Shown: positions 1 through 13,670 of the stretch, piece by piece | Numbering within the stretch: the stretch's first letter is position 1 | How the letters are laid out: every line of letters starts with the position of its first letter | Origin: Saccostrea echinata | Lineage: Eukaryota | Assembly (NCBI RefSeq): GCF_033153115.1 | Contig: NW_026889758.1 | Coordinates: forward strand, 43,896,001-43,960,000 | Direction of reading: 5' to 3' | Length of the DNA: 64,000 nt | Notes under the pieces: model-generated | Seen by the model: the letters and a program-made list of their open reading frames with translations, nothing else | Databases searched by the model: none | Told to the model about the DNA's origin: nothing | Position numbers and translations under genes: made by a program

Positions 1-2144
1 TCACATTTGGTGCTGTGCCATGCCCTGGAAGTGACAGGTGAAAGACCTGCCATGGAAGAGCCTGGGTTAGTGTCTTCGTGGGCGAAGACCTTTAAGTCGG
101 ACGGATTCGGTCGCCGGTGCCCAGAGAGCACTTGATTGGAGATTCAGGGGGTATGTGCAAGATTATAGGCATAATGGATCACATGACCATTGGCAAAAAG
201 AAAAATTGTATGATATGCTGTAGAAAGAAAGATAACTCAACTGCTAATGAAAAATATTGACGAGGAAACTTTCATTTAGATAGTGATCTGCATCCTCACA
301 ACGTCAGGGGTCCAAAGTCCACTTGTGGCCGTTGGACCCCACATTCATTATCGAAATAAACTGATATATTTCGCTTATTGAACTATGGAGGGACTTCAGT
401 GCCACAGTTCTCTTTTGATATTTTTATTCGTTTTCGTAGTTCTTTTCTTATATCATTATTTTTATTTATTTAAATTTTTAAATCTGATTTTTCCAATTTT
501 ATTATTTTTTTTATTTCTTATTTAGTTCTAACTTCCTGTTTCAATATTTTTATTTCATTTTGATTCTAACATCCTGTTTTAATTTTCGAATTTTATCTTC
601 ATTTCTTTTATTTTGACAAAGTTTCTTAGTATGCACCCGTAATCGAAGATTCGGGGGCATATAGTTTATGCCCTGTCCGTCCGTCTGTCTAGCTGTCTGT
701 TTGTCCGCAAAAACATTAACATTGCCCATAACTTTTGGTTGGTCGGAGCTATGGCTTTCATATTTCACATGTGTATTCCTTCTTTGGGTACCATCATATT
801 TGACCTTTTGACCTTTGATCCAGTTTTGCAAAATTTCACCCAATTTTAACCTTGGTCACAACGTGCTAGGGCTTTTATACTTCATATATGTAATTCTTGT
901 AACAAGAAGTTACTTTGGATACCAACAATTTTGACCCTTTGACCTTGGAGTTTGACCTTCTTTTGAAAAAGTTTAACCTTGGTCACAACGTGCTAGGGCT
1001 TTTATACTTCATATATGTAATTCTTGTAACAAGAAGTTACTTTGGATACCAACAATTTTGACCCTTTGACCTTGGAGTTTGACCTTCTTTTGAAAAAGTT
1101 TAACCTTGGCCATAACTTTTGAACAGTTGGTGCTAAGGCTTTCATACTTCACATGTGTATTTCTTGAGACAAGACCTTCCTTTAGATTCAAACAATTATG
1201 GCTCATTGACATTGAAATTGGGAGTTTGACCTACTTTTGGAAAACTTTTACCTTGGCCATTACTTTTGAACAGTTGGTGCCAGGGCATTATACTTCATAT
1301 ATGTAATCCATGTGACAAGAAGTTACTTTGGATACCAACAACTTTGACCCTTTAACCTTGGAGTTTTACCTACTTTTGAAAAAGTTTAACCTTGGCCATA
1401 ACTTTTGAACAGTTGGCGCTAGGTCTCTCATACTTCACATGTGTATTTCTTGAGACAAGACCTTCCTTTAGATACAAACAATTATGGCCCATTGACATTG
1501 AAATTGGGAGTTTTGTTACATTAAAAGTTTAGACTTTATCAAGTTAAACTTATCTATAACAGTCTGGTTATATCGCATGAAATTTCACTTATGAAATTTA
1601 ATGAAATTTTTACTTTTGTTTTAAATCATATTTCACTTCATTTTAAATATGCAAATTTAATTACATTTTATTTTAAGTGTTCAAATTAATTCAATTTCAA
1701 ATAATCAATTTAATATGTTTTGAATGATCACTCTCTTAGATTTGAGTATAAATTTACATAGAAATATATGCGTTATTTAGCAAATTCAGTTTCATTTACA
1801 TCGGCAATTCTTTTGATTTTGGCATGTTTTGTACTCAATTGCCATGTCACTGGACATCTAACAGCTGTTTTAACCTTTAGGTAAATAAGAAAATTCTTTC
1901 CAATTTCGGCCTCTTTTGAAATAAATTCTTTCGAAGATTGAGTTGACACATCGGAACTTTTTATAGATAAAATTATTTACTTTCACCATCGGTCAGCTTA
2001 ATCCTTTCTTTGTTAATAACTCTTTTCTCGGAAACTAGGTAATTGACTTTAACACTTTTCGCTGTTTTGTTAACATAAGTAATTAGTGTCAACTCATCTA
2101 AGAAATTCTGCAAAAAAAAATTAGCTTAAGGACATCGAAATCAA

Positions 2145-2220
2145 GCTTCCTGATTGGTCATTGAGAGCAATTCCGAATTAAGCCGGGTGGAAAGCGAATT
2201 CATGAAATTCACTTTCCATT
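2145..2220 (+). promoter_or_regulatory. Putative LTR promoter: reverse CCAAT box and initiator
   Basis: ctgattggtc (ATTGG 2153-2157) lies ~55 bp upstream of tcacttt (2209-2215, fits Inr YYANWYY), which coincides with the start of the 75-bp internal repeat. Confidence 0.5.
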
Positions 2221-2996
2221 CGATGCTTAAAGAATAAAGAAGTACATTTAATTTATAGGAATTTGTTTCTCTTTTCCATCAGGTAAGCTTGAATAAATTT
2301 ATTTTGGTATTTTCAGTAAATTTTCATTCAAATATTGTTTTTATGCTCTTTTGATGAATTCAATAGATTTTATGTTTTATATTCTGAATGGGCAAACATT
2401 CTATTATTTTTAACTTTTTGGTGAACTTTGAGTTTGTCACTTTATTCATAATTTTAGAATTGTATGACTTTCTTACCTTTAACTTGTTTGCATACTTGTT
2501 TGATACTGATTTATTTTTACTTAATGTGTTTTGTATTGTTTGTTAAAATTGTGATTAATTAATTGAAATTTTTGTGCAAAGTTTCTTAATTTAATTCTTT
2601 GAAATCTCTTTTTATAAATTTGAACTTCCCGCGCTGATATTGTTAAACCTGTAGTGAACTCTTCAATGTAGGAAGGTAAATTTGTTAAGCGATAGAAATT
2701 CGTCGGCTAAGTGTCAGAAACATTTTCAAGATGTTTTCTTCTTTATTATTGAATGACAATAGGTAACAGTTTGATTTCTGAATTTTATACATTTTATAAG
2801 CGTTATGCATAATTTGATTTCTTCGGAGTTATTCATCTTTAGTTTATAAGCATGAAACAATCATACCTTCTCTCATCGAGTTTACTACAGGGTGTATCGA
2901 AATTTGTTAACTTGTGTTTTTTTCACTTTCCATTCGATGCTTAAAGAATAAAGAAGTACATTTAATTTATAGGAATTTGTTTCTCTTTTCCATCAG
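2208..2996 (+). repeat. Exact 75-bp direct repeat inside the LTR (2208-2282 and 2922-2996) flanking a putative 714-nt intron (2283-2996)
   Basis: Copy 1 ends CAG followed by GTAAGC (donor). Copy 2 ends ttgtttctcttttccatcAG (acceptor). Both contain AATAAA. The same arrangement occurs at 12801-12875 / 13515-13589. Confidence 0.85.
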
Positions 2997-3080
2997 ATAT
3001 AGCACCCAGTAGAAAGCCGAGTGGCGTACTACAAGCTAATTCCCCAGACATTCACACGATACAAAAGTGTGTGTGAAAAG

Positions 3081-11534: not shown

Positions 11535-12094
11535 TTTGATTTGTTGTTTTCCATGTACAAGATCATAACATTTTTTTTTCTTTCTGCACATTCACTTGGA
11601 ACTGTCAAGATTTTTGTTGTGCATAAAATGTGTTTTGTGGAGTTGTAAAGAAATAATATGAATGAAATATTATAGAAAAAAATAACACCTTTTGTATTTT
11701 GCTGGAAAATAATCTATGAGATTATTGTTATTTCTTTTCTTGCTGCAGCTGTACATATCTGTAAATACTCAATTTGTTTGTCATTTTTAATTTGAAAATA
11801 TCCTTGCCTTCATTGTATTCTTTTTACAAGAAAACATGCATCTTACAAATGTTTTTATCATTTGTATTGTCTAGAATTTGATGTTTATGTATAAATGTTT
11901 GTTTTTAATGATTTCTTGCACATGTATTTTGTTTGAATATGTAGTGAGCCTTTTTGTATGTTTTTTTCTGTGAATAAATTTAGTGTATATATAGGTTATA
12001 TAAAAAAAAAAAAAGAAAAGAAAAAGAAATGTATAATACTCAAAAACAACATGATGAACAAATTTTTTATTTGCTTTGAGGACAAAGCTTTTGT

Positions 12095-12106
12095 GGGCAA
12101 GGGGGG
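12095..12106 (+). promoter_or_regulatory. Polypurine tract
   Basis: gggcaagggggg immediately upstream of the 3' LTR. Confidence 0.85.
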
Positions 12107-13670
12107 AGACTGTTATAGATAAGTTTAACTTGATAAAGTCTAAACTTTTAATGTAACAGGTTATATCGCATGAAATTTCACTTATGAAATTTAATGAAAT
12201 TTTTACTTTTGTTTTAAATCATATTTCACTTCATTTTAAATATGCAAATTTAATTACATTTTATTTTAAGTGTTCAAATTAATTCAATTTCAAATAATCA
12301 ATTTAATATGTTTTGAATGATCACTCTCTTAGATTTGAGTATAAATTTACATAGAAATATATGCGTTATTTAGCAAATTCAGTTTCATTTACATCGGCAA
12401 TTCTTTTGATTTTGGCATGTTTTGTACTCAATTGCCATGTCACTGGACATCTAACAGCTGTTTTAACCTTTAGGTAAATAAGAAAATTCTTTCCAATTTC
12501 GGCCTCTTTTGAAATAAATTCTTTCGAAGATTGAGTTGACACATCGGAACTTTTTATAGATAAAATTATTTACTTTCACCATCGGTCAGCTTAATCCTTT
12601 CTTTGTTAATAACTCTTTTCTCGGAAACTAGGTAATTGACTTTAACACTTTTCGCTGTTTTGTTAACATAAGTAATTAGTGTCAACTCATCTAAGAAATT
12701 CTGCAAAAAAAAATTAGCTTAAGGACATCGAAATCAAGCTTCCTGATTGGTCATTGAGAGCAATTCCGAATTAAGCCGGGTGGAAAGCGAATTCATGAAA
12801 TTCACTTTCCATTCGATGCTTAAAGAATAAAGAAGTACATTTAATTTATAGGAATTTGTTTCTCTTTTCCATCAGGTAAGCTTGAATAAATTTATTTTGG
12901 TATTTTCAGTAAATTTTCATTCAAATATTGTTTTTATGCTCTTTTGATGAATTCAATAGATTTTATGTTTTATATTCTGAATGGGCAAACATTCTATTAT
13001 TTTTAACTTTTTGGTGAACTTTGAGTTTGTCACTTTATTCATAATTTTAGAATTGTATGACTTTCTTACCTTTAACTTGTTTGCATACTTGTTTGATACT
13101 GATTTATTTTTACTTAATGTGTTTTGTATTGTTTGTTAAAATTGTGATTAATTAATTGAAATTTTTGTGCAAAGTTTCTTAATTTAATTCTTTGAAATCT
13201 CTTTTTATAAATTTGAACTTCCCGCGCTGATATTGTTAAACCTGTAGTGAACTCTTCAATGTAGGAAGGTAAATTTGTTAAGCGATAGAAATTCGTCGGC
13301 TAAGTGTCAGAAACATTTTCAAGATGTTTTCTTCTTTATTATTGAATGACAATAGGTAACAGTTTGATTTCTGAATTTTATACATTTTATAAGCGTTATG
13401 CATAATTTGATTTCTTCGGAGTTATTCATCTTTAGTTTATAAGCATGAAACAATCATACCTTCTCTCATCGAGTTTACTACAGGGTGTATCGAAATTTGT
13501 TAACTTGTGTTTTTTTCACTTTCCATTCGATGCTTAAAGAATAAAGAAGTACATTTAATTTATAGGAATTTGTTTCTCTTTTCCATCAGATATAGCACCC
13601 AGTAGAAAGCCGAGTGGCGTACTACAAGCTAATTCCCCAGACATTCACACGATACAAAAGTGTGTGTGAA
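12107..13670 (+). repeat. 3' LTR
   Basis: Starts agac-TGTTA after the PPT. 12159-13670 duplicates 1566-3077. Ends ...gtgtgtgaa next to the TSD. Confidence 0.95.

Follow-up and report, generated by a model that had tools for sequence, protein, structure and literature searches.

The stretch of DNA analysed here (the window) comprises 64,000 nt of contig NW_026889758.1 from the oyster Saccostrea echinata (assembly GCF_033153115.1, positions 43,896,001 to 43,960,000, forward strand). It carries a 12,158-bp Ty3/gypsy element at 1514-13671, flanked by a 4-bp target site duplication (TSD), in which the outermost part of one long terminal repeat (LTR) is inverted. Specifically, the segment 1514-1565 matches 12107-12158 exactly when reverse-complemented; the latter comprises the four bases past the G run of the polypurine tract (PPT) and bases 1-48 of the 3′ LTR. 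Host DNA is joined to a CA inside the unique 3′ region (U3) of the LTR, and LTR position 49 is where the natural cDNA end is attached. A search of the genome recovered the inverted segment, hereafter the tip, at independent sites and in four families (A-D) whose tip sequences differ, those of C and D being unrelated to those of A and B. The first-pass annotation, which described a very young and intact endogenous retrovirus-like element, overlooked this tip, the unusual feature of the locus.

From left to right, on the plus strand unless stated otherwise, the element is preceded by the left TSD, GTTT (1510-1513), which lies within a tandem repeat of ~140 bp. The inverted U3 tip (1514-1565, minus strand) joins host DNA through its internal CA end and is followed by the 5′ LTR body (1566-3078), which extends from the base after the internal CA, LTR position 49, to GTGAAA. 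A TGG motif resembling a primer-binding site (PBS) lies 2 nt past the LTR end (3081-3092), and the spacing in relatives is likewise 1-2 nt. On the other side of the coding region are the PPT (12095-12106), the forward U3 tip (12107-12158; AGAC followed by TG...CA, with a predicted hairpin whose CA end is recessed and whose 5′ overhang is 4 nt long), the 3′ LTR body (12159-13671) and the right TSD, GTTT (13672-13675). The right end of the element is GTGAAA and not CA; in the 5′ LTR the same sequence is followed by 2 nt and the TGG motif. A 5-bp TSD was ruled out, as two copies are compatible with 4 bp only. The whole element is embedded in a tandem repeat with units of ~126-147 bp (709-1513 and 13671-14033), which is also found at other loci, in some cases beside LTR insertions (L044, L050 and L169).

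Exact alignment of the LTR bodies (1566-3078 and 12159-13671) reveals 0 mismatches over 1,513 bp, and gag and pol are open, which bears out the youth and intactness claimed for the element. The LTRs taken whole do differ, because the first 52 bp are inverted, and the clean TSD that had been reported is exact but 4 bp long, placing the right end at 13671. Contig C40 carries a second full-length copy with other flanks and open frames. It shares 99.7% identity over 9.7 kb, and its differences fall on 10 of 1,392 positions in pol and 3 of 502 in gag; such a near-identical copy at a different site indicates that the family moved recently. The order of pol domains, with protease (PR), reverse transcriptase (RT), RNase H and integrase (IN), is that of Ty3/gypsy elements, as are the LTRs, PBS-like site, PPT and short TSD. 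The exception is the end-to-end direct LTR repeat with attachment (att) sites at the cDNA termini, which is lacking here. Named pol homologues come from bivalves and an abalone, at 42-52% identity.

The gag gene (3128-4585, 485 aa, TAG stop) matches Retrotrans_gag (E=1.5e-8) and encodes a CCHC knuckle. It is followed in the same frame by pol (4586-8764; 1,392 codons), whose PR, RT, RNase H and IN domains are matched by Pfam at E values from 1e-35 to 1e-7 and carry the catalytic motifs DTG, YLDD and D-D-E. The single TAG that parts the two genes lies in a candidate read-through signal (4583-4616) consisting of TAG-G, an 8-nt spacer and an 8-bp stem. Of 17 elements examined, 11 retain this arrangement with altered stems, and all 11 are env-bearing. 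Gag-Pol is probably made through UAG read-through. The same layout was noted in L051, L053, L063, L065, L069, L075, L077, L079, L083 and L089 and is missing from the env-less relatives examined. In murine leukaemia virus (MLV) the read-through signal has an 8-nt spacer after UAG-G. The oyster element resembles MLV in its in-frame amber stop, the UAG-G context, the spacer and the stem that follows, and differs in that a simple stem-loop is predicted, with no pseudoknot inferred. Stop-codon read-through at the MLV gag-pol junction is described in PMC12789967.

A chromodomain is assigned to the end of integrase (8606-8734). The C-terminus of pol scores 17.4 bits against Pfam Chromo, under the cut-off of 25.1, so that the profile check proposed at first pass falls short by this measure. 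In a PDB sequence search, in contrast, all but one of the 18 best of 39 matches are chromodomain proteins, including cpSRP43 (E=4e-5) and HP1/CBX (E=4e-4). Two of six close homologues scanned (P0158 and P0159) exceed the Pfam cut-off, and a precomputed Chromo match accompanies 39 of 120 listed pol homologues.

The third frame, env, spans 8979-11534 (851 codons), and its exon after the splice acceptor (9046-11534) encodes a signal-like segment, a fusion-peptide-like segment (~9465) and then two hydrophobic stretches, as in an F-type fusion protein. No ATG precedes the signal peptide, and the first in-frame ATG (9516) is downstream of the fusion peptide, so env requires splicing. Three long open reading frames with all catalytic motifs had been reported; this description holds for gag, pol and the motifs, with the reservation that the env frame has no start codon of its own ahead of the signal peptide. 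The phase of the acceptor before env is shared by families C and D and by C16, a control family, and Env is probably expressed from spliced RNA. A phase-1 donor inside gag (3322) was considered as the env donor and rejected, as it is not conserved in six other elements.

The Env protein itself has no Pfam match. It has 2,607 relatives at E<=0.001, and a profile built from 82 of the best 150 matches the PDB 'fusion protein' entries 9w4d (E=1e-16 over 415 positions) and 9w4c (E=1e-14). The Baculo_F cut-off is passed by 5 of 24 Env homologues, and the best Atlas clusters are Baculo_F (0.95), with a low recognition score. Homology of the third frame to glycoprotein F is supported by these profile comparisons, and the proposed union of an F-type env with a chromodomain in one element is upheld. 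Of 40 homologues whose site could be located, 32 have a canonical furin motif before the fusion peptide; the Env of the window has none. All four family B copies L052, L054, L056 and L058 have an internal env deletion that removes approximately residues 42-559. As the env-deleted copies are recent and numerous, this suggests that family B is a non-infectious derivative that still transposes.

The novelty that had been claimed for this combination does not stand, because it has already been published for molluscs. Chary and Hayashi (eLife 2026, PMC13524379) describe an errantivirus clade occurring in Cnidaria, Mollusca and Annelida that bears chromodomains. Their supplement 4 records a chromodomain in 9 of 14 bivalve elements tested, five of which are listed as ENV_F among 15 bivalve rows of supplement 1. 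Likened by features, the oyster element and these ancient errantiviruses have in common a gag-pol-env gene order, an F-type env, integrase followed by a chromodomain, LTRs measuring 0.4-1.8 kb, young insertions in multiple copies and bivalve hosts. Its gene set is that of a further member of a known group, and its env and chromodomain content is ordinary. Classical chromoviruses of fungi and plants, and Sushi, have no env, unlike the window element, and a search of viral contigs returned no relative. The main text of PMC13524379 makes no mention of inverted or palindromic ends, target site, read-through or splicing. The LTR finder as described there retains repeats of >99% identity with a bit score above 200, and under these criteria a 52-bp inversion would escape report.

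Inversion of the tip recurs within its families. In family A, all eight insertions with both ends available begin with the inverted tip, and the TSD is exact in seven. Four of the eight have the tip joined at position 49 and four at internal positions, the latter being 5′-truncated copies; the truncated joints share 0-2 nt (five read). The host/tip joint is exact, while the tip/body joint is ragged and homology-poor: the body frequently starts right after the CA, and the tip is trimmed by 0-14 nt. From 149 matches of an integrase search we picked 20 related elements with pol, spanning 48-88% identity. Seven have an inverted tip of 50-56 bp (four in family B, two in C and one in D), each with an exact 4-bp TSD; ten, all outside the clade of the tip families, have plain direct LTR starts, two yielded no LTR pair and one (C38) has neither tip nor TSD. 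In a pol tree of 836 columns, families A-D and the metagenome locus L142 form one clade with support 96/96, and the tip families also group in the env tree (Shimodaira-Hasegawa-like approximate likelihood ratio test, 89).

Among 10 loci in metagenome contigs, L141 (98% RT identity) and L142 (58%) have a hairpin tip behind the PPT, on stretches that end short of any 5′ LTR start. In raw RNA reads from other samples the tip occurs beside different flanking sequence (3, 4 and 6 reads), and an inverted tip adjoins a forward tip in a DNA contig from another sample. A targeted literature search on inverted or hairpin LTR ends, with Repbase and subscription papers outside its scope, yielded no description of such ends; the hairpins of bivalve terminal-repeat retrotransposons in miniature lie in the inner domain, unlike the tip (PMC6934838). 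Relatives in the wider group (L069-L090) have non-canonical LTR ends (TATCA..TGATA, TGAAA and TAATA) with 4-bp TSDs, which indicates that the CA specificity of integrase is relaxed across that group.

The plus strand of the tip is predicted to fold into a hairpin in which the base of the stem pairs the first TG with the last CA; in families A and B a 5′ overhang of 4 nt remains. Against mononucleotide shuffles, z ranges from -3.0 to -4.0 in all five tips with RNA parameters and from -2.1 to -3.7 with DNA parameters. The stem is kept despite sequence change between families C and D, and also in L141 and L142, which come from an independent collection. As modelled, the base of the hairpin resembles a processed integrase end.

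The genome also contains many tips apart from full-length elements. The tip-start pattern of families A and B has 384 genome matches, compared with 22 for a control pattern. Within the first 100 matches, 28 form 14 head-to-head A/B pairs of 80-109 bp; subtracting these and 11 already examined left 61 matches at 60 loci. Non-LTR DNA adjoins the internal CA at 58 of these loci (four look like chance matches and some share flanks), and one further locus is a head-to-head joint of two LTR bodies. Short palindromic insertions (minis) were also found in family C, where 10 of 11 could be parsed; they measure 96-110 bp, have an exact TSD in eight cases and have at least nine different centres. The seven minis of family A have an exact TSD in three cases and three of four bases in another three, and one is unreadable.

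The partners of the tip lie both in cis, as above, and in trans: tips are likewise attached to a non-autonomous LTR family, family X, whose 536-bp LTR has canonical ends and an exact TSD in eight solo copies. A/B-type tips occur at 6 of 20 family X loci, in both orientations (two of the six were known before the search), with joints mostly at ends that retain PPT, PBS or unprocessed bases, and one tip-family X chimera is enclosed by an exact TSD. Family X is probably mobilised in trans by families A and B. Its members (L151-L170) are ~2.3 kb long, with LTRs of the form TGTCA..TGTTA, a 4-bp TSD, the PBS type of the clade and at least 40 LTR matches. For about a dozen tips, among them those at L038, L171, L173, L177, L178, L192, L222 and L227, the partnered DNA matches none of the references used; these may be one-ended insertions with host rearrangement, or joints to other element families. 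Tandem arrays were seen as well, at L045, at L106-L109 and L115, and at L075/L076: C42 has LTRs duplicated in part, C25 has family C LTR units in a 3,024-bp tandem, and C1 has a full-length element in tandem.

We consider it very probable that these structures share an origin in the use of an internal CA by integrase combined with end joining, a core that is common to three of the readings weighed below. For the reading we prefer, the case is finely balanced: integrase would process a plus-strand hairpin, the free tip would be integrated opposite the U5 end, and fill-in and end joining would flip it. Plus-strand DNA primed at the PPT would fold over its first ~52 nt into a hairpin, the base of which would mimic a processed retroviral end, with paired TG/CA and a short 5′ overhang. 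Integrase would cut after the hairpin CA, as in ordinary 3′ processing, and free the tip; the cut template would then begin at position 49, where the minus strand would run off. An intasome carrying one U5 end and one free tip would create the 4-bp TSD by strand transfer, gap filling would open the hairpin, and end joining of its outer end to the body would flip the tip. Two tips per intasome would give rise to ~100-bp palindromes, and resected or foreign cDNA ends to truncated copies and chimeras. A transcription start site at position 49 was also considered as the origin of the joint and set aside, since alone it yields no inversion.

Several observations weigh against integration of a processed hairpin. 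No intermediate has been observed, and the steps from the PPT to the final structure are inferred from integrated copies. A U3-start hairpin is also predicted in 4 of 10 non-inverting relatives (z -3.2 to -5.3), so folding is not sufficient for inversion. As DNA the hairpins, which are rich in AT, have little stability (-5 to -7 kcal/mol), and in families C and D and L142 the last base of the CA has no pairing partner. An RT-only tree of 405 columns did not join the two tip groups into one clade. All 12 readable left ends of the control family C16 are ordinary (three share a flank), and the family C element C38 starts at the body, has no TSD and has no tip within 2.5 kb upstream. At L211, one of the 60 loci, the joint is at the true U3 end; the insertion is a composite with a tip at the other end and the TSD CATA, and it indicates that the tip route is not strictly obligatory. 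The head-to-head locus L202, with two LTR bodies around one tip, fits a dimer formed before integration equally well. Inversion itself has been observed in one genome assembly only.

This last point fits an assembly artefact, or a single aberrant integration, since every inverted left end comes from that assembly. We regard such an origin as wholly improbable, however, given that inversion recurs at dozens of loci, each family with its own sequence, and with exact TSDs; the RNA reads with other flanks and the inverted-forward contig, both from other samples, further weigh against assembly error. Nor do we believe that the ~100-bp palindromes are an independent miniature inverted-repeat transposable element (MITE), with the tip as a MITE half that landed at LTR starts. 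The minis are indeed numerous, end in TG..CA and carry long inverted arms and TSDs of 4 bp, but the tip is family-specific and always lies forward behind the PPT in the 3′ LTR, and the TSD brackets the whole element instead of the tip, which largely refutes a MITE origin. Moreover, the centres of the minis vary among copies: where a MITE or a Ginger-type element should show many copies of one master, 10 minis have at least nine centres.

Two other routes retain the internal CA and deserve more weight, while seeming to us unlikely. One, which we hold to be improbable though worth serious attention, is that the ends are joined before integration, when template jumping by RT or ligation within the particle links the 3′ end of the minus strand to the tip. 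The product could be a covalent hairpin cap or a head-to-head cDNA dimer, in which integrase would cut at the internal CA before inserting an ordinary two-ended linear DNA. Few steps are then needed to explain copies with a tip, a complete forward tip and a body (C30, L098, L100 and L201), the PPT-retaining L040 and the head-to-head L202. Two molecules must be invoked, on the other hand, for family X chimeras, which involve both ends and have joints at the 3′ ends of either strand, and likewise for minis with one diverged half (L046 and L128), and the variable trimming of the outer end of the tip resembles end-joining repair. The other, which we likewise doubt and would place a shade lower, is that integrase nicks the finished LTR at the position-48 CA and transfers it. 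In that event host nucleases would cut the opposite strand as they would an oversized 5′ flap, and end joining would reconnect the free ends. The hairpin, on this view, would serve otherwise, as an RNA element or a protein site. The same final structure results, non-inverting relatives have hairpins too, and the att sites recognised by integrase are short, as outlined in PMC12789967. Integrase would have to act 50 bp away from a DNA end and, for the most part, pass over the adjacent canonical TG/CA end, which was used at 1 of 60 loci. Left unexplained would be the coincidence of hairpin base and cut site in all tip families and the abundance of tip-only minis.

The LTR bodies have a second peculiarity. 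A 75-78 bp duplicate whose first copy (2208-2282; AATAAA, a pyrimidine tract and CAG) is followed by a GTAAG donor precedes an intron-like GT..AG segment (2283-2996), the last 75 bp of which, including AATAAA, repeat the sequence ahead of the donor. Such duplicates also occur in five other families examined, and in C16 and C61 there are 5′ LTRs that lack exactly the GT..AG segment. The segment could be a spliced intron that is rebuilt at strand transfer, or it could be lost by recombination between the duplicates. The layout was seen at 2208-2996 and 12801-13589 of the window and in L070, L072, L076, L077/L078, L079/L080 and L084. Expression had been proposed as a check, and three raw RNA runs gave 35, 22 and 55 matching reads per ~12.9 million records each; in the search across runs at most 0.17 of the words were shared. 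No read was >=99% identical to the element and most aligned only in part, so that neither expression nor silence is shown; the reads of these three runs supplied no transcription start, splice or poly(A) site. One contig set contains 213 pieces, mostly 90-99% alike. Elsewhere in the window, two open frames on the plus strand (261 and 136 aa) at 56405-57655 resemble exons of a host gene, and a ~51-bp tandem repeat at 40317-41319 yields repetitive open frames on both strands.

By definition, LTR elements and retroviruses carry direct repeats at their termini, and integrase acts on the outer ends of these repeats. A family-wide exception would show integrase acting on an internal or hairpin site and depending on end joining within the element, with the by-products preserved in the genome. 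We propose tentatively, at a little short of even confidence, that this clade has a split attachment system, in which the left att site would be a separate, self-folded plus-strand DNA of ~50 nt cut by integrase. If this is true, each insertion would carry a double-strand break that is sealed by end joining; cDNA ends unusable by integrase, including those of other families, would be rescued; and hundreds of palindromic mini-insertions would be scattered through the genome. This would be novel both as a way for retroviral-type integrases to insert DNA and as a source of MITE-like palindromes. Two predictions follow: LTR finders that require TG..CA direct repeats should mis-delimit tip-bearing elements, and some of the ~100-bp MITE-like palindromes annotated in molluscs should prove to be retroelement debris.

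Inverted ends arise elsewhere through twin priming of L1, in the inverted pseudo-LTRs of Penelope and in the flip/flop terminal resolution of parvoviruses, and foamy-virus integrase cuts palindromic LTR-LTR junctions. Like the oyster element, these systems show inversion of a terminus, or cutting by integrase at a palindrome that lies internally, but they involve other enzymes or substrates, and to our knowledge none of them has a fixed ~50-bp module in integrase-inserted LTR elements. End joining also has a place in LTR element replication, in second-strand synthesis by alternative end joining, in 1-LTR and 2-LTR circles and in autointegration, as summarized in PMC12951756 (citing Yang et al. 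2023). There, as proposed here, host end joining acts on LTR cDNA ends; the products described in that source are circles or by-products, in contrast to an inverted terminal segment in intact integrated copies. The closest comparison is with canonical retroviral and Ty3/gypsy integration, with which the oyster element shares a CA-3′ end joined to host DNA, a short TSD, a PPT and PBS, and the removal of 2 nt at the U5 end. Canonical att sites, as set out in PMC12789967, are the ends of linear cDNA, and both LTRs are direct repeats. The oyster element, by contrast, has an internal left att site, a flipped tip, GTGAAA at the U5 end and, within the 5′ LTR, a joint free of homology.

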